64,000 nt of DNA from Salinivirgaceae bacterium (GTDB lineage: Bacteria > Bacteroidota > Bacteroidia > Bacteroidales > SZUA-534): positions 32,001 through 96,000 of the forward strand of contig JAKSOL010000004.1 in assembly GCA_024405635.1 (NCBI GenBank). The letters are read 5' to 3'. The notes under the pieces are model-generated. The model saw nothing but the letters and a program-made list of their open reading frames with translations. It was not told where the DNA came from and did no database searches. A program made the translations under genes and the position numbers. Positions 12,863-45,200 of this stretch are shown here, piece after piece; position 1 is the first letter of the stretch, and every line of letters begins with the position of its first letter.

Positions 12863-13125
12863 GTTTTATACACCTAACAAATCATTGTGCTTCGTTTTTT
12901 TATTCCCTCGCTTTTAGGTTGTCGCAAATCGCTATTCTTTTTCAACGCTTTCCTTTTGGATTTTAATCTGCCTCTTTTTTATTGAAAAATGACAATGGTC
13001 TTTTATGTTTCGATAAGAGAAGTTTGTGCTTAATTTCTGAAAATCAGTCGTTTACAACATTTTCGATTTGTTTTATAAATATCTTACATTTGGTTTTTAT
13101 TAAACATCAGTAACTATTGTTTTTT

Positions 13126-14682: not shown

Positions 14683-14688
14683 ACCCGT

Positions 14689-15807: not shown

Positions 15808-15810
15808 AGT

Positions 15811-16686: not shown

Positions 16687-16689
16687 GGT

Positions 16690-17796: not shown

Positions 17797-17802
17797 CCGC
17801 AC

Positions 17803-18903: not shown

Positions 18904-18960
18904 CGCCTGCCGCACAGGGACCGCAAACCACGGCACAGGGGCTGCAAACCGCCCCTATGT
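18895..18960. repeat. REP-like hairpin cluster (second copy at 18461-18530)
   Basis: CAGGC-TGAC-GCCTG and AGGGGC-N8-GCCCCT hairpins; 38-bp unit matches 18461-18498 at 34/38. Confidence 0.7.
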
Positions 18961-19011
18961 CAATGGCGTTAGCTTTTGATGATACCAACAAGAACAACAA
19001 AACAACAAACT

Positions 19012-22000
19012 ATGGCACAATACAATATCATAGCAGAGCAAGAAGAATATACTGTAGTCAGTGAGTATGAAGCAGAGTATGGCAGACCAGACAAGTATCA
19101 GTCAGAGGCTATGCTTGAAAAGGACTTCATCAAGGCACTCACAGAACAAGGCTATGAATACCTTCCTATTCATGAGGAAAAAGACCTTGTGGATAACCTC
19201 AGAGTTCAGCTGCAGAAACTGAACAACTACACATTTACTGATGGTGAATGGGAAAGATTTTTCAGAGAGAACCTTGCCAATAAGAATGATGATATTGTAG
19301 CCAAGACCACCAAGATACAAGAGGATTATATCCAAGTCCTAAAATGTGATAGTGGTGAAAGCAAGAACATCTACCTCATAGACAAGAAGAACATCCACAA
19401 CAATTACCTGCAAGTCATCAACCAATATGAAGAAGGTGGTGGTGTCCATGACACAAGATATGATGTCAGCATATTGGTGAATGGTCTGCCATTGGTTCAT
19501 GTGGAACTGAAAAGAAGGGGTGTTCAACTAAAAGAGGCTTTCAACCAGATAAACAGATATCAAAGAGATAGTTTCTGGGCTGGCTGTGGATTGTATGAGT
19601 ATGTGCAGATTTTCATTATCAGCAATGGCACAAACACCAAGTATTACAGCAATACCACCAGAGCCAACCACTTGAAGGAGCAACAGCAAGGTTCGGCAAA
19701 GCTCACCAACCGGAAGAAGACGAGCAACTCATTTGAGTTTTCATCATTCTGGACTGACAGCAACAACAAGGCTATCCTTGACCTCATAGACTTTACCAAG
19801 ACCTTCCTCTGCAAGCATACACTGCTGAATGTGCTGACCAAGTATTGTGTCTTTACAACAGAGAGGATGCTGATGGTGATGAGGCCTTATCAGATAGCAG
19901 CCACAGAAAGAATTATACAGAGGATAAACATAGCCAACAACTATAAGCAGTGGGGTAAGATTGAAGGTGGTGGCTACATTTGGCACACCACTGGCTCTGG
20001 TAAGACATTGACCTCATTCAAGACTGCTCAACTGGCATCAAGACTGGACTACATAGACAAGGTGCTGTTTGTGGTAGATAGAAAAGACCTGGACTACCAG
20101 ACTATGAAGGAGTATAACAGATTTGAGGAAGGTGCTGCTGACAGCAATTCTTCAACATCTGTATTACAGAGGCAGTTGGAGAACAAGGACAAGAATGGGG
20201 CTTACCACAACTATAAGATTATTATTACCACCATACAGAAACTCTCCATCTTTGTGCAGAAGAACAAGGGGCATGAGATTTTCCAGAAAAGGGTTGTCAT
20301 TATCTTTGATGAATGTCATAGAAGCAACTTTGGCGAAATGCATACAGCCATCACCAAGAACTTCAAGAAGTATCATCTGTTTGGTTTTACTGGCACACCT
20401 ATCTTTGCACAGAATGCTCCTTCGACAGGCTCAGGAACCGCCATGAAGACAACACAGCAAGCCTTTGGTGACAAACTGCATACTTACACCATTGTTGATG
20501 CCATAAATGATGAGAATGTCCTTCCATTCAGAATAGACTATGTGAACACATTGAAGCAGAAGGAGGACATCAAGGATAAGCAGATTTCAGCCATTGACAG
20601 AGAAAGGATTATGTCTGCTCCAGAGAGGGTTGAAGAAGTGGTGAAGTATATTCTTGAACACTTTGACCAGAAGACAAAGAGAAGTTCCTACTACTCATTC
20701 AGAACAACACAGAACATTGGTGAAGTGGCAAGTGCTGGTAAGGGCAAGGAAATTAAGGAAAAGAAACTGGCACAGAAGTTGGCTGGTTTCAATGCTATGT
20801 TTGCTGTGGCATCCATCCCAATGGCAAAGGCTTACTACAATGAGTTCAAGAAACAACAAGCCTCACTGCCAGAAGCCCAGAGATTGAAGGTAGCCACTAT
20901 CTATTCCTATGGAGCAAATGAAGAAGAAGTTGATGGTATTTTGGCAGAAGAAAATCCAGAGAGCACAACAAGCCTTGACCAGCAGTCAAGAGATTTCCTT
21001 GAAGGTGCTATCAAGGATTACAACCAGATGTTCAATACCAACTATGACACCAGCAATGACAAGTTCCAGAACTACTACAAGGATTTGTCATTGAGAATGA
21101 AGAACAGACAGGTTGATTTGCTGATTGTGGTGAATATGTTCCTTACTGGCTTTGATGCTACTACACTGAACACTCTGTTTGTAGATAAGAACCTCAAACA
21201 GCATGGATTGATACAAGGTTATAGCAGAACCAACAGAATATTGAACTCCATAAAGACCTTTGGCAATATAGTCTGTTTCCGCAACCTTCAACAAGAAACC
21301 GACGATGCTATCGCTCTCTTTGGCGACAAAGACGCAAGCAGTATAGTCCTTTTAAAAGACTTTAAATCCTACTACAACGGATACGACACCGCGAAGGGCA
21401 AGCACTGCTATGGATATGTCGAATTAGTGGAGCAGCTGAAGCAGGAGTTCCCTGACGGCAGACCCACTATGGGTGAGCAAGAAGAAAGAAGGTTCATCAG
21501 TCTGTTTGGTAGTCTGTTGAAATCTATAAATGTGCTTCAAGCCTTTGACCAGTTTGAAGGAAAGGAACTGCTCACTGATGGTCAGATGCAGGACTATCAG
21601 AGCCATTACCTTGATTTGAGGGATAAGTGGAGAAAGAGAACTCATGCAGACAAGGAGGTTGTGAATGATGACCTTATCTTTGAAACAGAACTCATAAGAC
21701 AAGTAGAAATCAACATTGACTACATCCTCATGTTGGTGAAGCAGTATCATGACAGCAACTGCAAGAACAAGGAACTGCTGGTGAACATCAGCAAGGCAAT
21801 AGGTGCAAGTATGAACCTCAGAAGTAAGAAGGAACTTATTGAAAGTTTTATTGCAACAATCAACAGTGGCGTGGATGTGAATGGAGCGTGGGAGGAATAT
21901 GTGAAGCTTAAAAAGCAAGAGGAACTAAACACCATAATACAAGAAGAGAAGTTGAAGGCGACCGAGACCAAGAAGTTTGTTGAGAACGCCTTCCGCGACG

Positions 22001-22143
22001 GACAACTGCGAACCACAGGAACCGACATAGACAAGATACTGCCTGCAATGTCTCGCTTTGGTGGAGGCGGAGACAGGAGTCAGAAGAAGACGTCTGTTAT
22101 TCAAAGATTGAAGGATTTCTTTGAGAAATACTTTGGACTGTAA
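19012..22143 (+). CDS. hsdR: Type I R-M restriction subunit (EcoR124-like)
   Basis: RYDV..LVNGLPLVHVELK nuclease motif, QINRY, HTTGSGKT, DECH, FTGTP, MFLTGFD; probable ATG 19012. Confidence 0.95.
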   Translation: MAQYNIIAEQEEYTVVSEYEAEYGRPDKYQSEAMLEKDFIKALTEQGYEYLPIHEEKDLVDNLRVQLQKLNNYTFTDGEWERFFRENLANKNDDIVAKTTKIQEDYIQVLKCDSGESKNIYLIDKKNIHNNYLQVINQYEEGGGVHDTRYDVSILVNGLPLVHVELKRRGVQLKEAFNQINRYQRDSFWAGCGLYEYVQIFIISNGTNTKYYSNTTRANHLKEQQQGSAKLTNRKKTSNSFEFSSFWTDSNNKAILDLIDFTKTFLCKHTLLNVLTKYCVFTTERMLMVMRPYQIAATERIIQRINIANNYKQWGKIEGGGYIWHTTGSGKTLTSFKTAQLASRLDYIDKVLFVVDRKDLDYQTMKEYNRFEEGAADSNSSTSVLQRQLENKDKNGAYHNYKIIITTIQKLSIFVQKNKGHEIFQKRVVIIFDECHRSNFGEMHTAITKNFKKYHLFGFTGTPIFAQNAPSTGSGTAMKTTQQAFGDKLHTYTIVDAINDENVLPFRIDYVNTLKQKEDIKDKQISAIDRERIMSAPERVEEVVKYILEHFDQKTKRSSYYSFRTTQNIGEVASAGKGKEIKEKKLAQKLAGFNAMFAVASIPMAKAYYNEFKKQQASLPEAQRLKVATIYSYGANEEEVDGILAEENPESTTSLDQQSRDFLEGAIKDYNQMFNTNYDTSNDKFQNYYKDLSLRMKNRQVDLLIVVNMFLTGFDATTLNTLFVDKNLKQHGLIQGYSRTNRILNSIKTFGNIVCFRNLQQETDDAIALFGDKDASSIVLLKDFKSYYNGYDTAKGKHCYGYVELVEQLKQEFPDGRPTMGEQEERRFISLFGSLLKSINVLQAFDQFEGKELLTDGQMQDYQSHYLDLRDKWRKRTHADKEVVNDDLIFETELIRQVEINIDYILMLVKQYHDSNCKNKELLVNISKAIGASMNLRSKKELIESFIATINSGVDVNGAWEEYVKLKKQEELNTIIQEEKLKATETKKFVENAFRDGQLRTTGTDIDKILPAMSRFGGGGDRSQKKTSVIQRLKDFFEKYFGL

Positions 22144-28641: not shown

Positions 28642-29439
28642 ATGGAACAATTTTTTAATCAAATAGGTCAATTCAAGAAAAACGCGCAAGGCAAAATCCC
28701 TTCGCTTGCAATTAGCAATGCTTTGTTGCAAAAAATAATCGGTTTGCTTTTCCCCATTTTAATTGAAGACCAAGAAGAAACGTCAGTTGAAAAAAAAGCT
28801 GAAGATGTTAGCGCACTTTTGGCAAAAACACTTGAGCAGCTATCGTATTCGGCAGTTGAGGTTGAGGAAAAAACCCGCGAGTTTATGAGTGCATTGCCAA
28901 GCATATACCAAAACATTTTGCTCGATGCCGAGGCAATTTACATGGGCGACCCTGCAGCCGAGTCGGTTGAAGAAGTGGTGGTTACCTATCCCGGATTTTA
29001 TACCATTATGGTGCATCGCATTGCACATCAACTTTACTTGCAACGCATACCAATTTTGCCACGTTTGTTTTCAGAGCACGCTCATGGCAAAACAGGCATC
29101 GACATTCACCCTGCAGCACAAATAGGCAAATCGTTTTGCATCGACCACGGAACAGGCATTGTGATTGGCGAAACAACCACCATTGGCAACAACGTAAAAC
29201 TATATCAAGGAGTTACACTTGGTGCATTGAGCGTTGACAAAGCCGAGGCAGGAACAAAACGCCACCCATCGATTGAAGATAATGTTACTATTTATGCCGG
29301 AGCAACCATTTTGGGCGGTAAAACTTTGGTTGGGCACAATTCGGTTATTGGCGGCAACGTGTGGCTTACCAGCAGCGTTGAACCATATTCAACAGTATTG
29401 AACCAAAGTGCAGTGTCGGTAAGAAATAAAAAGAAATAA
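28642..29439 (+). CDS. cysE: Serine O-acetyltransferase (CysE/EpsC type)
   Basis: GDPAA, YPG, TGIDIHPAAQIG, IDHGTGIVIGET, KRHP hexapeptide region. Confidence 0.9.
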   Translation: MEQFFNQIGQFKKNAQGKIPSLAISNALLQKIIGLLFPILIEDQEETSVEKKAEDVSALLAKTLEQLSYSAVEVEEKTREFMSALPSIYQNILLDAEAIYMGDPAAESVEEVVVTYPGFYTIMVHRIAHQLYLQRIPILPRLFSEHAHGKTGIDIHPAAQIGKSFCIDHGTGIVIGETTTIGNNVKLYQGVTLGALSVDKAEAGTKRHPSIEDNVTIYAGATILGGKTLVGHNSVIGGNVWLTSSVEPYSTVLNQSAVSVRNKKK

Positions 29440-29469
29440 ACTGCTGACAATAAGTTATCTTCTAGTAAT

Positions 29470-29976
29470 ATGACTCCACGTTTTCAACGGATATTTATTG
29501 CAGTGCGTTTCACTCCCGAATTTTGTGATGCACTACAAGAAACCCAGCAACGTTTGCAGCAACGCGGAGTGCGCGGCACTTATTGCTCAAGGCAAAATTT
29601 GCATCTTACCCTTGCATTTGTTGGCGAAACCACTCAGATTGATGCGATAAGAGCCGCAGTGAGCCGCATTCAGTTTACTCCATTTGACATAGCAACAAGC
29701 AAACTTGGAGTCTTTGGCAACAGCAGTAAAGTTATTTGGGCAGGCATTGAAGGCGAACAACTGGTTGAGTCCATTGCCAACCAACTTCGTGCCGAACTAG
29801 AGGCAAATGGTGTAAAATTCGACTCCAGACCATTTAAAGCTCATGTGTCATTATTACGCCAACCCTCGTTGCTCATTACCAACGTTGAGGTGCCCCGCGC
29901 AACCATGACCGTAACCCACATCAGCATTATGAAATCGGAGCGCATAAACGGCCAACTGATTTATACCGAGATTTAG
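29470..29976 (+). CDS. thpR: RNA 2',3'-cyclic phosphodiesterase (2H family)
   Basis: RIFIAV, two HxT/S motifs (HLTLAF, HVSL), Y near C-terminus. Confidence 0.88.
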   Translation: MTPRFQRIFIAVRFTPEFCDALQETQQRLQQRGVRGTYCSRQNLHLTLAFVGETTQIDAIRAAVSRIQFTPFDIATSKLGVFGNSSKVIWAGIEGEQLVESIANQLRAELEANGVKFDSRPFKAHVSLLRQPSLLITNVEVPRATMTVTHISIMKSERINGQLIYTEI

Positions 29977-30062
29977 TTTTGCTTTAGCAAATAAGTGCAA
30001 AACATTAAAAACAAACAGTTTCCTTAATTATCCGACAAAGGCGTGGTGGCCAATAGTATGGC

Positions 30063-30088
30063 TTGTTTATGTAGTTTTTCTACATTTG
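30063..30088 (+). promoter_or_regulatory. Candidate promoter upstream of the YhcG array
   Basis: TACATTTG at 30081-30088 (Bacteroidetes -7 consensus), ~50 bp upstream of the first repeat core. Confidence 0.5.
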
Positions 30089-30120
30089 TAACAATTGTGC
30101 AACGTAATTTGATACTTATA

Positions 30121-30181
30121 CAAAACCAGAAATAGATTTTTAAACTAACATATTATTAATCACAGCGTTTGCTTATTATTC
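30121..30181 (+). repeat. Array direct repeat copy 1
   Basis: Core AAACTAACATATTATTAATCACAGCGTTTGCT 30142-30173. Confidence 0.9.
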
Positions 30182-30191
30182 GGATAGCCTA

Positions 30192-31316
30192 ATGAATTTC
30201 GACATATTAGTACATAAGATTTCAGTAGTTGAACAAGTTATGCTAAATGAAGTTGTTCATGCTATTAATGTGTCATTAACAGTGCGAAATTGGATATTAG
30301 GCTATTACATTGTAGAATTTGAGCAAAACGGCGAAGACAGAGCTGCTTACGGCCAAAATCTTTTGAAAAATCTTGAACAAAGATTACAGAAAAAGGGATT
30401 GACGGAAAGACGCTTTAGGGAGTTTCGGAAATTTTATTTGACCTATCCTCTATTAGAGTCAGAAATAAGATTGTACGTCGGAACAAATCTAAATCATGAG
30501 ATTCGGCAGATAGCATCCGCCGAATTGGATAGCCTTGGAAATCAAGATGATATGATCCGGCGGACGGCATCCGCCGAATTGGAACAATGGCAAACTGATC
30601 CACACAAAATCTTGTATAAAATTCCTTTTTCGCATTTGTTGATTTTGTGCAAGATTGAAGATCCTTTGAAAAGAGCTTTTTATGAAAGCGAAATCATAAA
30701 AGGATGTTGGTCGTGCTCTGAACTTGAAAGACAAGTAAACTCGCTTTATTTTGAGAGAACCGGATTATCGAAAGACAAAAACAGACTTTCTGAGATTGTC
30801 AATCAAAAGTCAGTTTCTCTACGCCCCAAAGACATAGTGAAGAATCCTCTGACGCTTGAGTTTCTAGGTTTGCAGGAGTCAAATGTTGTTATGGAAAATG
30901 ATTTAGAGAATGCTATTATAAATCATTTGCAGCATTTCCTTCTCGAACTGGGTGACGGATTCTGTTATGAAGCAACTCAAAAACGAATTCTTATCGACGA
31001 CGAATACTTTAAGATAGACTTGGTATTTTACCATCGTATTTTGCATTGCCACGTTTTGGTAGAGTTGAAGACGGATAAGTTTAGGCATGAATATGCTTCG
31101 CAGTTGAACTTGTACCTGAATTATTACAAGAACGAAATTATGCAATCTTCCGACAATCCTCCTATAGGATTGTTGTTGTGTACTGATTACGGTGAAACAA
31201 CTGTACAGTATGCAACCGCAGGATTAGATGAAAACTTGTTTGTTTCAAAATATTTGGTAAAGTTGCCGAGTGTAGATGAAATAAAGAAGTATATTATTGA
31301 AATAAATAAACGGTAA
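30192..31316 (+). CDS. YhcG/DUF1016 PD-(D/E)XK nuclease family protein 1
   Basis: WILGYYIVEFEQNGEDRAAYG, IDLVFYHRILHCHVLVELK, QLNLY, DNPPIGLLLC. Confidence 0.92.
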   Translation: MNFDILVHKISVVEQVMLNEVVHAINVSLTVRNWILGYYIVEFEQNGEDRAAYGQNLLKNLEQRLQKKGLTERRFREFRKFYLTYPLLESEIRLYVGTNLNHEIRQIASAELDSLGNQDDMIRRTASAELEQWQTDPHKILYKIPFSHLLILCKIEDPLKRAFYESEIIKGCWSCSELERQVNSLYFERTGLSKDKNRLSEIVNQKSVSLRPKDIVKNPLTLEFLGLQESNVVMENDLENAIINHLQHFLLELGDGFCYEATQKRILIDDEYFKIDLVFYHRILHCHVLVELKTDKFRHEYASQLNLYLNYYKNEIMQSSDNPPIGLLLCTDYGETTVQYATAGLDENLFVSKYLVKLPSVDEIKKYIIEINKR

Positions 31317-31325
31317 AACGATATA

Positions 31326-31379
31326 CAAGAAATAAATTTAAACTAACATGATTATTAATCATAGCGTTTGCTGATATTC
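31326..31379 (+). repeat. Array direct repeat copy 2
   Basis: Core AAACTAACATGATTATTAATCATAGCGTTTGCT 31340-31372. Confidence 0.9.
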
Positions 31380-31391
31380 TGAAATCATTAC

Positions 31392-32420
31392 ATGGATAAG
31401 AAACCACAAATACAAGATTCTCGTTACGATGCTCTAGTAAAGCAAATCTCGGAGTTAGTTGCATTATCGAAGCAAAAGGCTATGCATGCAGTTAATTCTG
31501 CCTTGGTGGAGATGAATTGGAATATTGGAAAATATATTGTGGAGTTTGAACAGAACGGTAACGCAAGGGCGGAATATGGTGCAAAACTGATACCTCAGCT
31601 TTCAAGAGACTTGACGCTTCTATTAGGAAACGGTTATTCAAAAAGTAACTTGGCAAATATGAGGCTGTTATATCTTCGATTTCCAATTTTCCAAGCAGTG
31701 CTTGGAAAATTAAGCTGGACTCAATTGCTTGAAATCATTCCAATAGATAATGAGTTAGAAAGGAATTTCTATACTATTGAAGCTATAAATAGAAATTGGA
31801 GTTACAGACAAATACACGAACAAAAAACTCGTGGCCTTTTTTATCAGTTGGCAACATCAAAAGAGGCATGTGATATTCTTTCTCTTTCCAATAATGGATT
31901 ACAGATAACACAACCAAAGGATGTAGTCAAGGATACTTATTTCTTTGATTTCCTAAGTCTCAAGACTCCCGATTATAGCGAAGGAGATTTAGAAGATGCT
32001 CTTATCAAGCACATGGAAGATTTCCTTCTGGAGTTAGGTAAAGGATTTGCTTTTATTGGTCGCCAGTATCGGTTGACCATAGACAATGACGACTATTATG
32101 CCGACCTTGTATTTTATCATGTCATACTTAAATGCTATGTGATCATTGATTTAAAACGTGGTAAAGTAAAGCATGAGGATATTGGGCAGATGAATATGTA
32201 TTTGGGTTATTTTGCGATGGACAAGAATACAGAAGGAGACAATCCTCCCATTGGCATTATCCTTGCTGCCGACAAAAACGATGTGATGGTGCAATATGCC
32301 ACATACGGCATGGATGCTAATTTATTCGTCGCAAAATATCAACTCTATTTGCCAGAAATTAACGAATTAAAAAGGCTGGTTCAAGCAGAACTTGACAGAC
32401 TTAACAATAAAACTGAATAA
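31392..32420 (+). CDS. YhcG/DUF1016 PD-(D/E)XK nuclease family protein 2
   Basis: WNIGKYIVEFEQ, LSWTQ, ELGKGFAFIGRQ, DLVFYH..IDLK, GQMNMY, DNPPIGI. Confidence 0.93.
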   Translation: MDKKPQIQDSRYDALVKQISELVALSKQKAMHAVNSALVEMNWNIGKYIVEFEQNGNARAEYGAKLIPQLSRDLTLLLGNGYSKSNLANMRLLYLRFPIFQAVLGKLSWTQLLEIIPIDNELERNFYTIEAINRNWSYRQIHEQKTRGLFYQLATSKEACDILSLSNNGLQITQPKDVVKDTYFFDFLSLKTPDYSEGDLEDALIKHMEDFLLELGKGFAFIGRQYRLTIDNDDYYADLVFYHVILKCYVIIDLKRGKVKHEDIGQMNMYLGYFAMDKNTEGDNPPIGIILAADKNDVMVQYATYGMDANLFVAKYQLYLPEINELKRLVQAELDRLNNKTE

Positions 32421-32436
32421 TACTTTAATAGATAAT

Positions 32437-32500
32437 AAAACAGAAAAATAGATTTTTAAAACTAACATAGTATTAATCATAGCGTTTGCTATTTATTCGG
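32437..32500 (+). repeat. Array direct repeat copy 3
   Basis: Core AAACTAACATAGTATTAATCATAGCGTTTGCT 32459-32490. Confidence 0.9.
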
Positions 32501-32875
32501 ATGAATACGGAGAACTATAAAATACAAAATATCGATGATTATGCTGAGTTGCTTAAGCAAGTCAAGCATCGCATTGGTCTTGCCCAAAAAAGAGCCATCT
32601 ATTCTGCGAATGGAGAGATGTTGCACATGTATTGGGATATAGGGAAACTCCTTCAGAATAAAATAGATGAAGCAAATTGGGGAGATAAACTGTTAGAGAG
32701 ACTCTCCATTGATTTAAAAAACGAGTATCCAACAGTAAAAGGGTTTACAACACGTAACTGCCGATATATGATGCAGTTTTATCGTGAATATAATCAAGAA
32801 CTTACATTTGTGAAACTGCCCGTTTCACAAATTGAAGGTTCGAATGAAAATGTGAAACCAATCATTTTAAATTAA
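32501..32875 (+). pseudogene. Truncated YhcG/DUF1016 gene 3 (N-terminal domain only)
   Basis: MYWDIGK, WGDKLLERLSIDLK, GFTTRNCRYMMQFY; stops before LSW motif and nuclease domain; ATG 32501. Confidence 0.8.
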
Positions 32876-32888
32876 ATAAGTAGTTTTA

Positions 32889-32939
32889 CAAAACAGAAAT
32901 AAATTTTAAACTAAAATATTATTAATCATAGCGTTTGCT
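32889..32939 (+). repeat. Array direct repeat copy 4
   Basis: Core AAACTAAAATATTATTAATCATAGCGTTTGCT 32908-32939. Confidence 0.9.
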
Positions 32940-32949
32940 GCAATTTGAG

Positions 32950-33981
32950 ATGAAAGAAAAAAAAGACATAATACATATTCCTGTTGACACATCCTTTCTT
33001 GCGGAGGTGAAAAACATTGTTGAGCAAGGTCGCCAACAAGCATACGCTTCTGTAAGTCAACTGATGATTGAAACTTATTGGAAGATAGGTGAACGTATTG
33101 TGTTACAAGAACAGAAAGGTAAAGACCGTGCAGATTACGGTACGCAACTCATTGAAGTGCTTTCAGAAGAATTGACCCGAACTTACGGGAAAGGATTCAG
33201 TAAAAGAAATCTCCAGTATTTTCGTGCGTTTTATTTGAGTTTCAATGATTTAGAAATTGTGCACACGCGTGTGCACAATTTATCTTGGTCACACATACGA
33301 ACTGTTTTACGAGTGGATGACATAACAGCGGCTCGTTGGTATTTGTTAACCGCCTCCCAAGAAATGTGGAGTGTGCGAACACTTGATAGAAATATTTCTA
33401 CACAATATTATGAACGTCATTTTAAGCAACCACAAATAGTAGAAAATACCCAAGAGGTGGTTGCACCCAACAAGTTGGAACTTCTGAAAAGTCCAATTGT
33501 TGCAGAATTTTTAGGATTCAAGAAAGATGACAGTTATAGCGAATCCGATATTGAAAGTGCCATTATCTCTCATTTGCAGGAGTTCATCATGGAAATGGGA
33601 CGTGGCTTTGCATTTATGGGTCGTCAAGAGATGATAAGAACAGCAAATAACGACTATTTCATTGATTTGGTATTCTATAATGTTGTGCTGAAATGTTATG
33701 TGCTTATTGATTTGAAAATAGGAAAGATTACCCATCAGGATGTTGGTCAGATGGATATGTACGTAAGAATGTATGATGACCTGAAACGTACTGAAGGCGA
33801 TAATCCTACAATAGGAATAGTATTATGCAGTGAAACTGATGCTGATATTGCGAAATACTCTATTCTTAAGGGTAACGAGCAACTGTTTGCTTCAAAATAC
33901 AAACTTTATTTACCTACGGAGCAGGAACTTCGCAGGGAAATAGAGGCTCAAAAAGAATTGTTCAACTTACAAAATAACTGA
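32950..33981 (+). CDS. YhcG/DUF1016 PD-(D/E)XK nuclease family protein 4
   Basis: YWKIGERIV, GFSKRNL, LSWSH, EMGRGFAF, IDLVFYN..IDLK, GQMDMY, DNPTIGI; ATG 32950. Confidence 0.93.
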   Translation: MKEKKDIIHIPVDTSFLAEVKNIVEQGRQQAYASVSQLMIETYWKIGERIVLQEQKGKDRADYGTQLIEVLSEELTRTYGKGFSKRNLQYFRAFYLSFNDLEIVHTRVHNLSWSHIRTVLRVDDITAARWYLLTASQEMWSVRTLDRNISTQYYERHFKQPQIVENTQEVVAPNKLELLKSPIVAEFLGFKKDDSYSESDIESAIISHLQEFIMEMGRGFAFMGRQEMIRTANNDYFIDLVFYNVVLKCYVLIDLKIGKITHQDVGQMDMYVRMYDDLKRTEGDNPTIGIVLCSETDADIAKYSILKGNEQLFASKYKLYLPTEQELRREIEAQKELFNLQNN

Positions 33982-33983
33982 AA

Positions 33984-34039
33984 AAAACAAAAATAATTTT
34001 AGACTAACATATTAATTAACAAGCGTTTGCTTATTATTC
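33984..34039 (+). repeat. Array direct repeat copy 5 (most diverged core)
   Basis: Core AGACTAACATATTAATTAACAAGCGTTTGCT 34001-34031; shares TTATTATTC tail with copy 1. Confidence 0.85.
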
Positions 34040-34043
34040 TAAA

Positions 34044-34209
34044 ACGTCCTTAAAACTTGGCGGTTTGAAGATGTAATTGGGGAATAATAAAGCAGGTGCT
34101 CACGTGTATACGTGGGTACTTGATTTATCTCTAATTACGGGTTCCGCCAAGTACCCAAGGACGTGGATAAATTGAGTATCCACGTTTTTTATTAGGTACT
34201 TGGCGGAAC
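34044..34209 (+). ncRNA. Putative structured leader RNA/attenuator upstream of the R-M-like genes
   Basis: Nested and mutually exclusive stems with G-U pairs; terminator-like hairpin 34161-34190. Confidence 0.55.
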
Positions 34210-34256
34210 AGAAGGTTTTATTACTAATATGCTAACGCGTTAGTAATAAAACAATT

Positions 34257-35294
34257 ATGACTAGCGCTGACATTATTGGCGTTGTAGATATTAGTGAAGA
34301 TGAAATCAAAAATTGGATTCCAGATTTATTAAATGTTCTACTGCGCGATCATTCTGCAAAACATGATGCTAAAATCGGGTCAAGCAATCCAGATGAACAT
34401 CATATCATTTGGGCGACTGATAGTTACGAGACTCTCGGTAATTGCTACAACAAACGTGCTCAAATTAGAGCTGAACTTATAACTGGCAAAAACGGACGAG
34501 TAATCCGCCCGCGTGCTGTAAAAACAAAAGTTGAGCAGCAAACTCGTACACGCAACAAAGCCGAGGTTTTTACGCCATCATGGGTTTGTAATGCCCAAAA
34601 CAATTTAATTGATAACGAATGGTTTGGTCGCATTGGAGTTTTCAATACGGAAAATAACGACAAAACCTGGACCACTAATCCGGAAAAAATAACCTTTCCA
34701 GAGGGTAAAACATGGATTGACTATGTAAAAGATTGCCGCCTTGAGATAACATGTGGCGAAGCTCCTTACTTAGTTAGTCGATATGATACCGTAACGGGCG
34801 AATATATTCCAGTTGAGAAACGAATAGGCCTACTTGACCGTAAGTTGCGAGTGGTGAACGAAAACACCTCTACGCCCGACGAATGGGTACCTTATGCTCA
34901 TTTGGCACTAGCATCTGTTTATGGCTACGAGTGGCAAGGCGATAGTTTGCTATTGGCCCGGGAGGCTGCGCTATGCACATTCATGGACCATTTTTGGCAA
35001 AAATTCCCCAACGAAAATCTATTTGACAAAACCATTATCAAGTCAGCTTATATCATAAGCTGGAACTTGTGGCAAATGGATGGCCTAAAAGGAAAAATCC
35101 CTTATTCTGAAAAAGTAGTTATTAACACAGACCTTTATGGTTCAGAAGAAAAAACCATAGAAGAAGGAGTTTACTGCGAGATTCTCTCATGGAAGTTAGA
35201 GCCTAATAAAAAAGGCATACTCAATTTAAGAAAGGACAAAAAAAGTCAATTTTTCTCTACAAGTCTTTGTCTCTCAAAAAAATACAAAAAATAA
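34257..35294 (+). CDS. MTase-like accessory subunit (SAM-binding half, no NPPY), partner of Eco57I-like fusion
   Basis: KAEVFTPSW (motif X-like), LEITCGEAPYL (motif I-like), YGYEWQGD, WQMDGL; no motif IV seen. Confidence 0.7.
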   Translation: MTSADIIGVVDISEDEIKNWIPDLLNVLLRDHSAKHDAKIGSSNPDEHHIIWATDSYETLGNCYNKRAQIRAELITGKNGRVIRPRAVKTKVEQQTRTRNKAEVFTPSWVCNAQNNLIDNEWFGRIGVFNTENNDKTWTTNPEKITFPEGKTWIDYVKDCRLEITCGEAPYLVSRYDTVTGEYIPVEKRIGLLDRKLRVVNENTSTPDEWVPYAHLALASVYGYEWQGDSLLLAREAALCTFMDHFWQKFPNENLFDKTIIKSAYIISWNLWQMDGLKGKIPYSEKVVINTDLYGSEEKTIEEGVYCEILSWKLEPNKKGILNLRKDKKSQFFSTSLCLSKKYKK

Positions 35295-35316
35295 TCTCTT
35301 AAATATTTCATACACT

Positions 35317-38300
35317 ATGGCAAGTATTGAATTTGAAAATGTTAGTAGTTGGCATATCATTTATTTATACACAATAGATGATGAGCAACATAAAGATCTT
35401 GTTAAGGTTGGAAAAACAAGTACCAACGAACTAGACCCAACCGATGACGACATAAAAAATGCAGCAATTGTCTGTATTCGGGGTCAGTTGAGCCGAGCAG
35501 GCATGTCATACAAAGATTTTTATGCAGAAAAGGCAATTTGTAGAGACAAAGATGGTAGTATAATAAACTTTTGGGACTACGATGTTCATGATGTTCTTGA
35601 ACGCTCAGGAATAAAAAACAAAAAGTTCAAAGGAAGTTCAGGCCGAGAGTGGTACGAGTGTTCAATGGAAACTGCCAAGGCCGCAATTAAAGCAGTAAAA
35701 GAAGGCAGACAATCGTTAAATGACAACGAAATCCGTGCTGACGTTAAACCAATTGTGTTTCGCGAGGAACAGCGTCGAGCAATTGATCAAACAAAGAAGG
35801 CTTTCGTAAATCACCAAGAAATGCTTTGGAACGCAAAAATGCGGTTCGGAAAAACTGTGTCAGCCTTGCAAGTGGTAAAAGAAATGAAATTCAACCGCAC
35901 ACTTATTGTTACTCATCGTCCTGTGGTTATTGATGGCTGGTTTAAGGACTTTGGTTGGATTTTTCACGACTGCACAAATTTTCAGTTCGGTTCAAAAAAA
36001 GATTATGGCTCTGACTACAATAAATGCGAAAGCGATTTGAAGAAAAAAGGAATCAATTATGTTTTTTTCGCATCAATACAAGACTTGCGCGGTTCGGATA
36101 AAGTTGGTGGTAATTATGAAAAAAATACCGAATTGTTCAGCACCAAATGGGATTTGCTAATAGTTGATGAAGCTCACGAAGGAACTTTAACCGCATTGGG
36201 TGATAATGTGTTGAGCGAATTGATAAAAACTAAAACCAAAGTGCTGAAACTCAGCGGTACTCCATATAATCTTATTGACAAATTCGACAAAGAGGCAACA
36301 TTTACGTGGGATTATGTGATGGAGCAACGCGCTAAAGTAAATTGGGAAAACGAACATCATGGAGAACCCAACCCTTACGCGTGTTTGCCTTCAATGTGTA
36401 TTTACACTTACGACTTGCCTGCGCTTATGAATCCTTCAATTGAAGCAGATAGCATGTCGTTTAATTTTCGCGAATTTTTCAAAACCGATGGAGACTTTGA
36501 CGATAAGTTTGTTCATGAGGATTCGGTAAAAGCCTTTCTTGATTTGTTGGTTGAAAATGATGCAAATAGTACTTATCCTTTTTGCACTGACCGCTTCATA
36601 AATACTTTCCGCCATACGCTTTGGATGCTGCCAGGTGTTAAAGCCGCTAAGGCAATGAGTAAGTTGTTAAAGAGTCATAAAACATTTAACCAATACGAGA
36701 TTTTAAACGTGGCTGGTAACGGTGACGAAGACGAAGAAAATGAAGAAGCATTGCAAAAGGTAAAAAATGCTATAGGCAACAATCCTCTTACATCAAAAAC
36801 CATCACTTTGTCATGTGGCCGTTTAACAACTGGTGTAAGTGTTCCTGCGTGGACAGGTGTCCTTATGCTTGCAGGTACAGCAACCACTTCGGCAAGCGGT
36901 TATATGCAAACTATTTTCCGAGTGCAAACACCTTGCAACCTTGGCGGAATGCAAAAAGAACAATGCTTTGTGTTTGACTTTGCGCCCGACCGTACACTAC
37001 AAGTACTTGCTGACGTAGCTCATATTGAAAGTGTAGGTAAAGGAACTACCGAGAGTCAACGCCAAACTTTAACCCAATTCCTAAACTTTTGCCCTGTTAT
37101 TTCGCTTAACGGATCTACTATGCAAGAGTACAATGTTGACTCCTTGTTTACCAAACTTAAACGTGTATTCATAGAACGCGTTGTTCAAAGCGGATTTGAG
37201 GACGAACACATTTTCAACCAAAAATCGTTGCAAGGATTAAGCGGCTCCGAACTTAAAATGTTTGATAAACTACATTCAATTATCGGCTCAACCAAGGCAA
37301 TGCCAAAAACCAAAAACATTGACATTAATAAAAAGGGATTAACAGAAGAAGAACAAGAACTTGTTAGTGAAATAGAAAATAAAAAACGTGGCGGGAAAAA
37401 ACTTACTAAAGAAGAACAAGAACTACTTGAACGCCATAAAGCCGAACTTGAACAGATGCATGCGGCTGCAAGCATTTTGCGAGGAATTGCAATACGAATG
37501 CCGTTAATGATTTTTGGTGCTAATGTGAAAGAAGGAGAAGAAGAAAAGGAATTTACCATTGATAATTTTGACAATTTGGTTGACGATGAATCGTGGAAAG
37601 AGTTTATGCCAAAAGACGTAAGTAAAAAGCTATTCCGCGATTTTAAAAAATACTTTGACAAAGACATTTTTACAGCAGCCAGCCGCCGCATTCGTGAATT
37701 AACAAAGGAGGCCGACTCTATGAGCATTGAAGAACGTATGGAACAAATCCATACAATCTTTAACTATTTCCGTAATCCAGATAAAGAAACAGTTCTTACT
37801 CCGCCACGAGTGGTAAATATGCACATGAGCAATACTTTGGGTGGATATTGTTTCTACGACGAAGATTTTGAAGAAATGCTTACGAAGGACCCTTGTTTTG
37901 TTAACCACAGCGAAGTAACAAAACAAGTTTTTTCAGCTCAAAGCCAAATTCTAGAAATAAACTCAAAAAGCGGACTATATCCGCTATATGCCGCATACTC
38001 AATATATAGGAGCCGTTGCTCAATAGCTCGCGAGAAAAACCAAAAACTTACACTCGCTCAGCAACAAACAATTTGGGACACTGTGCTTGCCGAAAACATT
38101 TTTGTGTTGTGCAAAATACCAATGGCAGAGTTCATTACAAAACGTACACTTGGCGGATTTCGCAAAGTGGCATTCAATGTGGCTTATTATAAAAATTTGC
38201 TCGTTGAGATTAAAAATTCACCCGATAAATTGATTAAAGCCCTTTCTAACTCAAAAACTTACAAATCAGCTAAAAACAATTCTAATATGATATTTGATGC

Positions 38301-39324
38301 AATTATAGGAAACCCTCCATATCAAGAAAACGATGGTAGTGGCGCTGCTGGTGATGCCGCTATGCCGATATATAACAAATTTGTTGACTTAGCTCTATTG
38401 TTAAAACCTACATATATTACAATCATTATGCCGTCAAAGTGGATGATTGGTGGTAGAGGTTTGGATAAATTCCGAACAAGTATGGTTGAGGACCATCATT
38501 TAGCTAAGTTTTTTGACTATGAAGACGACTCCTACATTTTCCCTAATACACACATAGATGGCGGTATTTGTTATTTCTTATGGGATAAAAAGCATAATGA
38601 CAAAATGCAATATTCATATCGTACTAAAGATGGTGATGTTATTAATACTGTCAGATTCTTGAACAATGACACTTCATCTTTTATCATTCGTGATTTTAGG
38701 CGTCAATCAATTATTGAGAAAGTCACTAAAAGAGCGTCTTTTAAAGAAATTGTATCATCATCGCGTCCATTCGGAATTAGAAAAGATCTGTTTAATTCTC
38801 CAGAACGCTATCCTGATTCTAGACTTTCAGAAAAAATGTTTGAAAACGCAATTCAAATTCATGGAGTAAAAGGAGTAAAGGGCGGAGCTAGAAGACAATT
38901 AGGTTTTATTAATTCAAGTGTAATAACACAAAATGTACAATGGATACCTCTTTATAAATTGTTCTTTACGACCACTTATTCTACAGGTGCTATTAATTTT
39001 CCTGAAATCATAGTTGCAGATTCGAATGTTGTATGTACAGAGACCTTTTTGGTTATAGGTCCATTTAATACGAAACTCGAACAGCAAAATTGTTTGAAGT
39101 ATACCAAAACTAGTTTCTTCAAAACACTATTGTTTTTTGGTAAGGGATCAATGCAAGTAACACAAGAAGTTTTTTGTTATGTTCCTCTCCAAGATTTTAC
39201 CTCAAATAGTGATATTGATTGGAGTCTAAGTGTTGAGGAAATTGACAATCAACTATATAAAAAGTACAACCTTACAAATGATGAAATTGCGTTTATAGAT
39301 GTTTTGATAAATCCAAAGGAGTAA
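35317..39324 (+). CDS. Fused nuclease (T5orf172/GIY-YIG-like)-SF2 helicase-N6 adenine MTase-TRD R-M enzyme (Eco57I-domain/ISP-like)
   Basis: IYLY..VKVGKT..REWY N-terminus; NAKMRFGKT, DEAH, LSGTP, QTIFRVQ; IIGNPPYQ; C-terminal TRD-like region ending VPLQDF. Confidence 0.82.
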   Translation: MASIEFENVSSWHIIYLYTIDDEQHKDLVKVGKTSTNELDPTDDDIKNAAIVCIRGQLSRAGMSYKDFYAEKAICRDKDGSIINFWDYDVHDVLERSGIKNKKFKGSSGREWYECSMETAKAAIKAVKEGRQSLNDNEIRADVKPIVFREEQRRAIDQTKKAFVNHQEMLWNAKMRFGKTVSALQVVKEMKFNRTLIVTHRPVVIDGWFKDFGWIFHDCTNFQFGSKKDYGSDYNKCESDLKKKGINYVFFASIQDLRGSDKVGGNYEKNTELFSTKWDLLIVDEAHEGTLTALGDNVLSELIKTKTKVLKLSGTPYNLIDKFDKEATFTWDYVMEQRAKVNWENEHHGEPNPYACLPSMCIYTYDLPALMNPSIEADSMSFNFREFFKTDGDFDDKFVHEDSVKAFLDLLVENDANSTYPFCTDRFINTFRHTLWMLPGVKAAKAMSKLLKSHKTFNQYEILNVAGNGDEDEENEEALQKVKNAIGNNPLTSKTITLSCGRLTTGVSVPAWTGVLMLAGTATTSASGYMQTIFRVQTPCNLGGMQKEQCFVFDFAPDRTLQVLADVAHIESVGKGTTESQRQTLTQFLNFCPVISLNGSTMQEYNVDSLFTKLKRVFIERVVQSGFEDEHIFNQKSLQGLSGSELKMFDKLHSIIGSTKAMPKTKNIDINKKGLTEEEQELVSEIENKKRGGKKLTKEEQELLERHKAELEQMHAAASILRGIAIRMPLMIFGANVKEGEEEKEFTIDNFDNLVDDESWKEFMPKDVSKKLFRDFKKYFDKDIFTAASRRIRELTKEADSMSIEERMEQIHTIFNYFRNPDKETVLTPPRVVNMHMSNTLGGYCFYDEDFEEMLTKDPCFVNHSEVTKQVFSAQSQILEINSKSGLYPLYAAYSIYRSRCSIAREKNQKLTLAQQQTIWDTVLAENIFVLCKIPMAEFITKRTLGGFRKVAFNVAYYKNLLVEIKNSPDKLIKALSNSKTYKSAKNNSNMIFDAIIGNPPYQENDGSGAAGDAAMPIYNKFVDLALLLKPTYITIIMPSKWMIGGRGLDKFRTSMVEDHHLAKFFDYEDDSYIFPNTHIDGGICYFLWDKKHNDKMQYSYRTKDGDVINTVRFLNNDTSSFIIRDFRRQSIIEKVTKRASFKEIVSSSRPFGIRKDLFNSPERYPDSRLSEKMFENAIQIHGVKGVKGGARRQLGFINSSVITQNVQWIPLYKLFFTTTYSTGAINFPEIIVADSNVVCTETFLVIGPFNTKLEQQNCLKYTKTSFFKTLLFFGKGSMQVTQEVFCYVPLQDFTSNSDIDWSLSVEEIDNQLYKKYNLTNDEIAFIDVLINPKE

Positions 39325-42255: not shown

Positions 42256-45200
42256 TTACTGTTTTACTACGTTAACCGATTGATTGCCAACCATAATCAG
42301 GTAAGCGCCTTGTGGCAAAGCCGAAAGGTCAATTTGCATGTTGTTGTCAACGGTTTGTTGCAATAGCAGTTGGCCGTTGGCGTCAAACACTTTTATGCTT
42401 TGTCCAGCTTCAATGTTGCCGCCACGTATGGTCACTAGGTTAAGCGTTGGGTTTGGATAAGCGGTTAGTTCAATGGTAGGTCCAAAATCCATGCTGCACG
42501 AGTAATAAGTTTGACCGTCTTTGTTGGTAGCAATAAGGTAGTAGGTGCCAGATAGTCCGCCTACCTCGTTGTAGTAAGCATTGGTGCAAACTTGCTTGTC
42601 GTTGTGCATCCACACGTAGTTATTAAACTGATGTTCAACATCGACAATAGAAACAACGTCGTCCCACATTTTTCTGATAAAGCGTTTGCGAACTTGGTAG
42701 TCAATTTGTTTGGTCAAATGGCTTGAACCAAGTTGGGCGGTTATGCCAATCACACCTTGAGCCGATGCGGAGTCGGGTATGGTGTAAGTGATTCCGTTTT
42801 GGCTGTTGTCGGCAGTTCCGTTTATGGTGTAACTGTAGTTAACGTTGTATAAGGCGCTCGATTTGGTTACTGAAATTTCAAGATCGTCGTCGTTTTCGCA
42901 AGTTACAAACGGATTAGGAGCATCAAAATCGATAAGCGCTTTAATGTCGGTAATGTTTTTGTCGGCAATGCCGTCGCCATCGGTGTCGATGTTGAGGTCG
43001 GGGTTGCCGTCGCCGTCAATGTCGCAGTTAAGGTTGCAAATGCCGTCGTCGGTAAAGTCAACGTTTATTTCGGTGTTCTGTTGCCAAGTAGCAACAAATG
43101 TCAAATTGTGGCTTGGCATTGTGCCAAAGTTGGTAACTAATGTGCCGTTATCGGTTGCCCAACCAGTGAATTTAAATCCAGCTTGGGTTGGAGTGTATGC
43201 AACAATTGGCTCGCCAAACAAAATGCTGTCAACTTTTGAAGTGGTTTCGGTTTCGGCCCAAGTAATGGCGTATTTGTTTTTGTTCCACAAACCAAAGAAT
43301 TCAACAGTGTCGGTAGCAGAGCCAAAGTCGGAAATGGCAACGTTGCTGTTTTGTGAGTTAGACCAACCTGCAAATGAGTAACCGTCGAGCGAAGGATTGG
43401 CGGGAGCTACAATAGGTTCGCCGCGCATCAGTTCAACGGTTGTGGTAATGTCGCCGTTGTTTGGAGTCCAGCTAATAAGCAAATGATTTTCGGTCCAAAG
43501 AGCAAACAAAGTATCGCCAAGTTCGGTCATGGTACCAAATTGGGTTTCAGCATCACCATCGGCAGCATGGCTCCAACCTGCAAAGGTGAATCCATATCGG
43601 CTTGGGTTGGTGGCAGGAGCAACAATTTCGTCGCCAAAATTGAGCGACTTGCTGAAGAATACGCTATCGGTGCCGTCGTTCATCAACCAAACGCTAGCAT
43701 ATTGTTTAACCGACCATATAGCGGTAAACGAAATGTCGTTGGCGGGCATTGTGTTAACCTCGGGAGCCCATGTGTAGTCAAAACCATCGCGCAAAAGAGT
43801 AGGAGCAACAATGGGGCTTTGGTACATGGCTGAGGTGTGAGTGTAAGGCATGTTTAGGTTTATAATGCCATCGCCAATGTTCCAAGTAACGGAGTATGAG
43901 TTTCGGCTATAGAAAACATCTTGCACCGATGAGCCGTCGCCAGCAATGGTTCCAGCCTCAAAAGCGTTAAGAGTAAAGCCGGTGTAGTTATTAGGAATAA
44001 CCTCCATAAGGTCGCCTGTTTTACCGGTGTTGGTAGTTGATTCGGCAAGAGTGTAAGAGCCGTCAAGTTCTTGAGTAAAGTGGCGAACGGTGTAGATTAT
44101 ACCATCGCTTGCCTCCCAAACAACGGTGTAGGTAGCATCGGAGTTAGGCATAGTGGCTGGCACTTGTGGCGACCATGTGTAAGTGAAACCATTGCGGTTT
44201 AATGTTGGAGCAACAAGAGGAGTTCCGTAGTAAACCAATCCATCTTCGGTGTAAGCTGATGCTTCAACCAAGCCTTGAGTAGTAATCCAAGCAAGTGAGT
44301 GTTGGTTGCGAGCGTAGTCGATGCGAACAACTGTTGAGCCATCGCCGTTTATGGTGCTTTGGCTGAAGTTTGCGGTAAAACCAACGGTGTCTTTAGCCAC
44401 TGCAACTGTAGCAGCATCGGCTAAACCCGAAAGAGTTTGAGAGTAAGTGGCGGTTGCGGGATAAGTGCCATCAAGTTGCATAAAGTAATGCTCAACGGTG
44501 TAGTTGGTTGCGCCTGCAGTCCAAACAGCGTTGTAGGTTAGCGCGTTGGCAGGCATTGTGGTAGCAGGTGTTGCGTCCCAAGAGTAACTATATCCAGCCT
44601 TGTAAAGTTGAGGTGCTGTGATGCTAGCGCCATAAACCACCGAACCGCTGGTGTAGCTGTTGGTTGCTGTTCCTCCGTTAAGATTCCAAGTTAAATCGTA
44701 ACTATTGCGGTTGTAGAAAATGTCAATGTCGTTGTTGGCATTGGCGGTAATGGTTTTTTGGCTGAAGGTTTGGCTTGTGAAACCAGTGTACGATTTTGCC
44801 TCGGCAGCAGTAGGAGCATCGGTTTTGCCGCTCAACTGTTGTGTGCTTGATGCGTCAACAGTATAGGTGCCATCAATATTTTGAAGGTTGTGGCGCACAG
44901 TGTAAAGGTTGTCGTTAGCCACCCAAACCGAAGTGAAGGTGGTGTTGGTAGCCGGCATGTTGGATATCACGTTGTCCCACGATCCTGTGTATCCAGCACG
45001 AACAAGCGTAGGAGCGGTAATAGGCGCATCAAAGTAGATGCTGCCAGCAGCAGTGTATGAACCAGTTGCAGAACCTCCGTTGGTAATGTTCCAAGTTAGG
45101 GTGTATTGGTTGCGAGTGTAGTTGATGGTTATTACAGTGCCACCGTTGCCGTTAATAGTGCTTTGGCTTATGCTTTGAGCAGTAAATCCTTCGTATGTTT

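Follow-up and report, generated by a model that had tools for sequence, protein, structure and literature searches.

Dimers of ParB/Spo0J, Noc, KorB and SopB bind palindromic DNA sites (parS, NBS, OB and sopC), reading the inverted repeat with a helical helix-turn-helix (HTH) domain. Palindromes also serve as operators in the promoters of toxin-antitoxin systems and of the controller (C) proteins of restriction-modification (R-M) systems, where the system's own HTH dimer limits a toxic enzyme, and quasi-palindromes are known as transient mutational hotspots of template switching (the Ripley model and reporter work in E. coli). The present analysis concerns palindromes that lie inside protein-coding sequence. 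In a 64,000-nt stretch of DNA from a Salinivirgaceae bacterium (contig JAKSOL010000004.1; the whole stretch is referred to as the window), positions 30192-33981 hold four tandem, same-strand genes of the YhcG (DUF1016) family, each with a different palindrome at the same place in its reading frame. YhcG/DUF1016 genes are very widespread, and both their function and their N-terminal domain are uncharacterised. A first-pass annotation of the window had pointed out these palindromes and offered several explanations, among them a self-recognition element or intragenic operator, an mRNA hairpin or guide, and a diversification hotspot repaired by template switching.

The likeness to the ParB group lies in a helical HTH domain and a dimer that reads an inverted repeat, although for YhcG both the dimer and the binding are predicted. 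YhcG lacks the N-terminal CTPase domain of ParB and any relationship to it at the sequence level, and its effector is a PD-(D/E)XK nuclease. Its site also differs from those of the ParB systems, in that no other copies exist in the genome and in that it stands at a fixed codon position by the putative recognition helix, varies from gene to gene and forces the sequence of the encoded peptide. Toxin-antitoxin and C-protein operators resemble it as self-bound palindromes (a property proposed for YhcG) with specificities that diverge between systems, whereas the YhcG site is in the middle of an open reading frame (ORF), doubles as coding sequence and would act independently of the promoter. As at quasi-palindrome hotspots, the arms change jointly, imperfect repeats turn into perfect ones, and the site undergoes deletions and rearrangements; unlike those hotspots, the YhcG site is held at one position across phyla and co-varies with the upstream helix. 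REP/REPIN sequences and their RAYT genes are alike in that short palindromes are specific to an associated nuclease-type gene, and E. coli has a loose palindrome copy near yhcG, but the YhcG palindromes are not dispersed, lie inside the gene rather than flanking it, and come without an HUH enzyme.

One published precedent for a ParB site inside its own gene is a 14-bp palindrome, taken as such a site, within parBm on the megaplasmid of Thermus thermophilus (PMC4409726). Perfect inverted repeats have also been described in functional mitochondrial protein-coding genes, as a compromise of protein sequence and DNA symmetry, in a 2019 report (PMC6649704); these are up to 284 bp long and numerous, lie in conserved regions of many genes and have no known reader, whereas each YhcG gene has a single short site that falls in a variable linker and is tied to a putative DNA-binding helix. 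No published description of the YhcG/DUF1016 palindrome was found, supplements and subscription journals being outside the search; new here are the predicted ParB-like fold, the predicted dimer and the candidate helix/half-site code.

Four YhcG genes and their palindromes

Membership of the YhcG/DUF1016 family (COG4804) is defined by the Pfam domains DUF1016_N (PF17761) and YhcG_C (PF06250), the latter a PD-(D/E)XK nuclease domain. Gene 1 (30192-31316, 374 aa), gene 2 (31392-32420, 342 aa), gene 3 (32486-32875, 129 aa) and gene 4 (32935-33981, 348 aa), all on the + strand, matched DUF1016_N with 79.7, 130, 81.8 and 152.9 bits, respectively (gathering cut-off 32.8). YhcG_C was found in genes 1 (166.9 bits), 2 (198.9 bits) and 4 (181.9 bits) and is missing from gene 3 because of its truncation to profile positions 1-92 of 137. 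Genes 1, 2 and 4 also match the profiles of the PADLOC candidate defence family PDC-S02 (E values from 3e-115 to 2e-131). Pairwise identity between the four is only 26-38%, and further YhcG copies are present on two other contigs of the same genome.

All of these palindromes are 25-28 nt long and lie at the homologous site within DUF1016_N, between an 'FY' and an 'LSW[ST]H' motif. Gene 1 has ATTCGGCAGATAGCATCCGCCGAAT (30501-30525) and a tandem second copy 54 nt downstream (30555-30579), each with 9 of 10 arm pairs matched; the palindrome of gene 2, AATTTTCCAAGCAGTGCTTGGAAAATT (31685-31711), has 13 of 13 pairs, that of gene 3, ATTTGTGAAACTGCCCGTTTCACAAAT (32806-32832), 11 of 11 pairs around a 5-nt centre, and that of gene 4, AAATTGTGCACACGCGTGTGCACAATTT (33254-33281), 14 of 14 pairs with no centre. 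These counts confirm the five palindromes of the first-pass annotation, at one homologous codon position and with the peptides IRQIASAEL/IRRTASAEL, IFQAVLGKL, FVKLPVSQI and IVHTRVHNL. Its description of the palindromes as unrelated in sequence was right in that the sequences differ, but overstated, since an outer ATT...AAT and parts of the core recur throughout the family. Upstream of each palindrome is encoded a putative recognition helix, the positions of which are counted back from the Tyr of the 'FY' motif: ERRFREFRKFY in gene 1 (30405-30437; Arg at -9 and at -6), KSNLANMRLLY in gene 2 (31641-31673; Ser at -9), TRNCRYMMQFY in gene 3 (32750-32782; Arg at -9) and KRNLQYFRAFY in gene 4 (33202-33234, residues 90-100 of a helix modelled at 90-102; Arg at -9), all on the + strand. 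The heptamers GTGAAAC and GTTTCAC, the half-sites of the common chromosomal parS, occur with their order reversed in the arms of the palindrome of gene 3, which may be a coincidence.

Such palindromes are rare. With at least 10 matching arm pairs, at most one mismatch and a loop of at most 8, the window holds 14 hairpin-like palindromes, of which four are those of the YhcG genes and one lies in a Bro-N/Fic gene. The 2.66-Mb genome has 93 (score at least 11, loop at most 3), nearly all of them terminator-like, and 15 are inside frames of at least 150 codons, including YhcG genes 2 and 4 and a RhuM gene. Copies in host and phage DNA, for which the first-pass annotation had proposed a search, were not found: at up to 5 substitutions the genome contained no copies of any window palindrome other than the gene-internal ones, and viral contigs gave zero exact matches to the 24-mer of gene 4 or the 25-mer of gene 2.

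Occurrence in the family and symmetry of the DNA

The family was sampled through the best 80 of 583 confirmed gene 4 relatives from one-genome-per-species contigs, 401 genomes of the phylum of the window, 299 of a second phylum (that of G001), 351 of a third (that of G706), and five genomes reached via loci. A profile built for this work placed both anchor motifs in 250 of 256 matching ORFs and yielded 239 distinct linkers. This set contains neither the loci that duplicate the window nor those of RhuM, Bro-N and E. coli. The symmetry axis was picked blind to the two innermost pairs, and the 10 outer pairs were scored. At least 8 of these were complementary in 194 of the 239 linkers, compared to 22 of 227 control segments of equal length taken 40 codons downstream in the same genes, and at least 9 in 143 linkers compared to 4 controls. 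The 45 weaker linkers belong mostly to one subfamily and have shorter arms. Comparison with codon shuffles, proposed earlier as a family-wide test, likewise revealed enrichment: the best palindrome of the whole ORF exceeded all 20 synonymous-codon shuffles in 63 of the 80 gene 4 relatives (mean score 12.2 versus 7.3). The yhcG gene of E. coli K-12 carries three tandem palindrome copies. At the set E-value limits, YhcG/DUF1016 genes were present in 127 of 401, 78 of 351 and 38 of 299 genomes of the three phyla, and the coding palindrome is a shared feature of the whole family.

The symmetry is a property of the DNA and not of the peptide. Peptides are wholly different between classes (for example EIVHTRVHNL, IFQAVLGKL and EIWKSRFPNL) with the symmetry retained, and the complementarity runs through to the axis. 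Of the 61 even-type sites, 51 are matched at pair 1 and 60 at pair 2; of the 133 odd-type sites, 90 and 125 are. The axis of even-type sites always falls on a codon boundary. The codon immediately left of this boundary has the form NCG in 49 of 60 cases, and NCT and NCC do not occur there, although G is the third base of only 19.1% of Thr, Ser (TCN) and Ala codons elsewhere in these genes. Together with the mirrored transversions and the Val codons described below, these axis pairs and NCG codons support the earlier proposal of a symmetry maintained in the nucleic acid as the peptide varies.

Co-variation of helix and half-site

Bases of the half-site change together with residues of the upstream helix. 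The comparison covered 194 sequences in 102 clusters at 70% identity, each cluster being counted once, with half-site numbering that starts at the outer ATT, where position 1 opens a codon in 192 of the 194 sequences. Helix positions -9, -6 and -5, which share one face of the helix, have the highest mutual information (MI) relative to entropy (1.22, 0.86 and 0.90); values at -10, -4, -3 and -2 are 0.53-0.68, though the last three are nearer the site. All 48 clusters with Arg at -9 have G at half-site position 6, and 50 of the 54 with any other residue there have C or T. Of 16 clusters with Arg at -5, 15 have C at position 8, corresponding to G on the opposite strand. Position 5 is C in all 5 clusters with Glu at -6, T in every cluster with Trp, Tyr, His or Ala at -6, and T in 7 of the 8 with Phe.

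These associations have arisen repeatedly. Independent pairs were taken on a tree of the flanks alone, with helix and linker left out. Among 21 such pairs for Arg-9/G6, 17.9 changed in the same direction, 0 in the opposite direction and 3.1 were unchanged (p = 7.6e-6); the corresponding figures were 18.3, 0 and 7.7 among 26 pairs for Arg or Lys at -6 with G5 (p = 7.6e-6), and 6.7, 0 and 2.3 among 9 pairs for Arg-5/C8 (p = 0.016). The control positions -10 and -2 gave p values of 0.51, 0.29 and 1.

The helix residue appears to be linked to the base and not to the peptide residue that the base helps to encode. Where half-site positions 4-6 form a Val codon, all 23 clusters with Arg at -9 use GTG, whereas clusters without it use GTC (12), GTT (2) or GTG (2). 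Alongside Arg-9/G6, the peptide has A, S or T as residue 7 where the site is odd-type, but H, P or Q where it is even-type. Genes 1, 2 and 4 of the window obey the rule, combining Arg with G, Ser with C, and Arg with G, respectively, and gene 3, with Arg at -9, obeys it only in the axis register. A simpler scheme, in which helix position -6 alone sets the outer half-site, was rejected: the relation is many-to-many in the larger sample, and the MI map puts the strongest link at -9.

Predicted fold, dimer and nuclease domain

The N-domain of gene 4 (residues 1-170) was modelled as all-helical with a pLDDT of 83.8. Helix 90-102 is followed by the palindrome-encoded residues 107-116, and the palindrome-encoded block has a pLDDT of 81-84, compared to 91-94 in the neighbouring blocks. 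The best fold matches, in the first of two independent structure searches, were to ParB-parS (6s6h_B; Z 7.6, 107 aligned residues, rmsd 4.8), Spo0J (1vz0_A; Z 6.7, 91 aligned, rmsd 2.9), KorB-operator (1r71_A; Z 5.5, 95 aligned, rmsd 3.3) and SopB (Z 4.6, 104 aligned, rmsd 4.6), and those to ParB, Spo0J and KorB recurred with the model of the whole protein. Among the Foldseek matches listed to rank 22, 15 of 15 rows were ParB, Spo0J or Noc. These scores are weak, and the models may point to a ParB/KorB-type HTH fold. Pfam recognised only DUF1016_N in the N-domains of the window's YhcG proteins, and neither gene 4 nor the N-domain profile gave sequence links to solved structures. The N-domain is called unknown by Kosinski et al. 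2005 (PMC1189080).

A symmetric dimer is also predicted. The homodimer model passed, with a score of 0.73 against 0.00 for the best control; the mark was reached by 20 of 30 proteins solved as same-chain pairs and by 1 of 23 solved as single chains; the runs agreed in at least 84% of contacts, with a partner pLDDT of at least 64. The predicted interface is formed by residues 17-84 and leaves helix 90-102 free. The C-domain resembles NucS/EndoMS (2vld; Z 8.4, 96 aligned, rmsd 3.3; Foldseek E 2.5e-4) and an archaeal Holliday-junction resolvase (1gef; Z 5.6, 84 aligned, rmsd 3.1), and a likeness to such nucleases is also given in the 2005 study (PMC1189080).

Proposed function of the palindrome

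The interpretation favoured here, at a probability of roughly one half, is that the palindrome is the binding site of the protein encoded around it, probably for feedback on expression, and that template switching keeps its arms alike. Of the alternatives offered by the first-pass annotation, a self-recognition element or intragenic operator fits best, given that the preceding helix and the half-site change together, residue with base, in many independent lineages. The N-terminal domain, as a ParB/KorB-like HTH dimer, would bind the cognate double-stranded palindrome in its own gene. The helix G-x-G-F-S-x-R-N-L-x-x-x-R-x-F-Y (residues 90-102 in gene 4), encoded 5-10 codons upstream of the site, would be the reading element, with residues -9, -6 and -5 contacting half-site positions 6, 5 and 8. 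Each gene would represent a linked pair of reading helix and site, and a shift in specificity would take one amino-acid change and a mirrored change of both arms, the latter of which template switching could provide in a single event. The purpose is more speculative: binding within the ORF would most likely exert a promoter-independent negative feedback on a potentially toxic nuclease, either by blocking transcription or via protein tethered at its own gene, and feedback of this kind would suit genes riding as passengers in other (restriction) operons. The first-pass suggestion that the array stocks different specificities holds insofar as the four genes carry different helix/site pairs, which makes the specificities themselves plausible.

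If this is correct, a site and its reader paired in one coding stretch would be the first testable mechanism for the family, and the many helix/site pairs would offer a natural read-out of a protein-DNA recognition code, accessible from sequence alone. Regulation would travel with the gene, without need of its own promoter, and coding sequence would be seen to be shaped by a DNA site as strongly as by the encoded protein.

Several observations weigh against this interpretation. Support for binding of the palindrome by the N-domain is indirect, coming from the co-variation and the predicted dimer. The fold matches are weak (Z below 8 for a helical domain, Foldseek E values of 0.2-1.3), and phmmer and a profile of 40 sequences, run against the sequences in the PDB, found no relative of ParB. 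Since the MI map that singled out the co-varying positions came from the same data, the p-values are post hoc, and after a rough correction for about 1,800 possible tests the two best survive and the others fail. The sample is skewed, as 80 of about 250 genes are gene 4 relatives and high-scoring Pfam matches are over-represented, and the 45 weakest palindromes, in which the half-site could not be defined, were omitted. In E. coli K-12 the rule, as Lys-9/C6, is obeyed by only the first of the three palindromes. Every arm base sits in a codon, so residue-residue coupling within the protein could also contribute to the association. Symmetry at the axis is not needed by an HTH dimer, and therefore template switching must act as well. 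Finally, the proposal leaves unexplained why a nuclease should bind a single site within its own gene.

A bolder and unlikely version of the proposal regards YhcG as a portable, re-programmable specificity module, in which helix and palindrome lie within about 60 bp and the self-site is the reference for discrimination between self and non-self. One templated arm-to-arm event plus one residue change would re-key the module, and arrays would hold mutually orthogonal keys. The self-site might act as an allosteric second site, comparable to those of two-site restriction enzymes, or might exclude incoming DNA carrying the same module, and the same logic would extend to the RhuM and Bro-N genes.

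Evolution of the arms and alternative explanations

Mirrored double changes outnumber one-sided changes, by 75 to 36 in even-type and 93 to 48 in odd-type sites, as counted on nearest-neighbour edges, which are not independent events. Transversions make up 72 of the 75 and 67 of the 93 mirrored changes, which excludes wobble intermediates for most of them, and the pattern is that expected if one arm serves as template for the other, not that of an RNA stem evolving via G:U pairs. Simultaneous mirrored arm changes are what characterises quasi-palindrome template switching, and the homogenisation of arms by this route, as proposed in the first-pass annotation, is supported by the mirrored transversions.

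The same changes could arise in a self-perpetuating quasi-palindrome without function in the cell, where templated correction of the arms outpaces point mutation and drags the peptide along, and rearrangements are the only effect. Such an element would readily account for symmetry that extends to the axis, for an encoded segment of lower model confidence than its neighbours, for the tandem copies in gene 1 and in E. coli, and for the deletion, replacement and insertion sequence (IS) junctions at palindromes described below. What makes it improbable is the behaviour of the helix: residues encoded 12-17 codons upstream track the bases, in one direction and in about 18 independent lineages, and those at -10 and -2 do not. 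Moreover, coding palindromes are few genome-wide outside the YhcG, RhuM and Bro-N genes, and conservation of the outer ATT...AAT across phyla would be left unaccounted for.

More doubtful is selection for hairpin structure alone, in RNA or single-stranded DNA, where the hairpin might protect transcript 3' ends, mark a point of processing or pausing, or make ribosomes pause between sub-domains. A hairpin is disfavoured because the two innermost pairs, which cannot form in it, are nevertheless complementary and paid for in rare NCG codons. RNA folding was stronger than in shuffles for all four genes (z of -3.0, -3.5, -5.1 and -4.6 for genes 1-4), and the arms vary with pairing retained, like those of structured RNAs, but the variation is mainly by transversions, and the 70 mismatches show no clear wobble bias (19 G:T and T:G, 11 A:C and C:A). 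No Rfam 15 match was found at any palindrome within 29000-35500 at E values up to 5, and an element under selection for structure only would not be expected to follow the residues of an upstream helix base by base. A hairpin located just after gltD in E. coli K-12 (L129 8633-8657) has arms identical to those of the first O157:H7 yhcG palindrome, which would suit a structural element; gltD is immediately 5' of yhcG in O157 and other strains, and K-12 has the gltF-yhcF cluster between them. As for the mRNA hairpin or guide of the first-pass annotation, the lack of a clear wobble excess and a symmetry that runs through the would-be loop leave it unsupported.

Rearrangements at palindromes and cassette turnover

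The palindrome site is fragile in nature. Homology of gene 3 to full-length YhcG genes stops exactly at the 3' edge of its palindrome. In E. coli, the yhcG linker was matched in 3973 of 5426 complete genomes, with at least 80% of it covered in only 2858. The yhcG gene of O157:H7 has an 80-nt deletion of two palindrome units and is annotated as frameshifted. According to one report (PMC3514354), LSPA-6 typing of E. coli O157:H7 uses a yhcG length marker, and the loss of palindrome units fits this length polymorphism. In 718 of the 5426 genomes, yhcG homology breaks off exactly where the third palindrome has its outer edge; from there on, about 400 nt with a 101-aa ORF stand in place of the 3' two-thirds of the gene (L251 2765-3070). 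Other E. coli alleles include a deletion between adjacent palindromes that leaves the left arm of the first fused to the right arm of the second, and one in which an IS1 end adjoins a palindrome arm. These events are few and inactivate the gene. A link to hairpin-seeking insertion sequences was considered via the 101-aa ORF, which is annotated as 'transposase', and was dropped as this ORF has no Pfam match.

Gain and loss of whole genes in natural populations proceeds via a different element. A conserved element of about 50 nt stands ahead of each YhcG gene, in five + strand copies overall: copy 1 before gene 1 (30129-30179), a cassette junction in other strains; copies 2 (31328-31378) and 4 (32895-32945); copy 3 (32446-32496), fused straight to copy 5 in contigs of four runs; and copy 5 (33981-34039), an orphan that precedes R-M genes. 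Its core is AAACTAACAT...AGCGTTTGCT, and copy 2 holds a small palindrome of its own, ATGATTATTAATCAT. A contig joint from 32453 to 33997, which skips genes 3 and 4, was found in contigs of 4 of 4 runs from other samples, and one from 30129 to 32446, from copy 1 to copy 3, in one run. The YhcG array is cassette-like, with turnover of cassettes via the upstream elements, and resembles an integron in having a repeated junction element and a cassette content that differs between strains. No recombinase domain was found in the scanned ORFs near the array, which were part of the ORFs of the window. In further contigs the upstream element is bordered by other sequences on one side or the other. Contig ends near palindromes (pieces X7 and X10 overlap at 31683-31726) were rejected as rearrangements, assembly breaks being the simplest explanation.

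A cruciform or four-way junction, serving as a site for the protein's own Hjc/NucS-like nuclease or for recombination that diversifies or switches the array, would be in keeping with the predicted fold of the C-domain, with homology that ends exactly at the outer edge of palindromes in gene 3 and in the E. coli allele, with the arm fusion and the IS1 junction, and with the existence of mosaic genes. It is nonetheless an alternative of low probability, somewhat below that of the hairpin. The clearest mosaic (L014 versus L017) breaks 50-75 nt upstream of the palindrome, natural gain and loss of cassettes uses the upstream elements, with no joint at a palindrome among contigs assembled from natural populations, junctions at the bases of hairpins are expected of any palindrome, and the few events seen are all inactivating. 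Discordance between N- and C-terminal parts was likewise set aside as a sign of a recombination hotspot at the palindrome: mosaics exist, and the sharpest breakpoint is upstream of the helix.

A cause at the protein level, with the peptide as a selected motif and the helix/site link as residue-residue co-evolution in the fold, is already disfavoured and very improbable: every arm base is within a codon, the peptide closely follows the helix in the model, and the I-x-Q-T-x-S-A-x-L units repeated in some genes look like a peptide repeat, but peptides differ completely between classes with the symmetry kept, a synonymous Val codon tracks the helix residue, and the partner residue of Arg-9 changes with the reading frame while the base pair is constant.

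Genomic neighbourhood

DUF1016 genes are enriched beside restriction and phase-variable defence loci with programmed inversions, according to one study (PMC9881135), and the neighbourhood of the YhcG genes in the window matches such restriction surroundings. Downstream of the array, after the orphan upstream element, are a Type II methyltransferase gene (34257-35294, + strand) and a gene for a 1335-aa helicase/Eco57I-type methylase fusion (35317-39324, + strand). Upstream of the methyltransferase gene, the leader that follows the orphan element contains a weak match to the Rfam DUF3800-I RNA motif (34085-34196, + strand; 34.9 bits against a gathering score of 44.2, E 0.015) and the inverted repeats 34141-34158/34192-34209 and 34215-34227/34240-34252.

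Coding palindromes were also seen in two other gene families near R-M genes. A Type I R-M operon at 13117-22143 (hsdM, hsdS, hsdR) has two Fic-domain passengers, and its Bro-N/Fic gene (15811-16686; PADLOC PDC-S04) carries a palindrome at 15995-16019, with 11 of 12 arm pairs, just 3' of an HTH-like stretch. On another contig of the same genome (C35:84419-85454, - strand; L127), a RhuM gene located between hsdM-like and hsdS-like ORFs has a 29-nt coding palindrome, with 13-nt arms and 1 mismatch, about 8 residues after an HTH-like stretch. Further along the window, an ORF of 3360 residues occupies 42256-52338 on the - strand.

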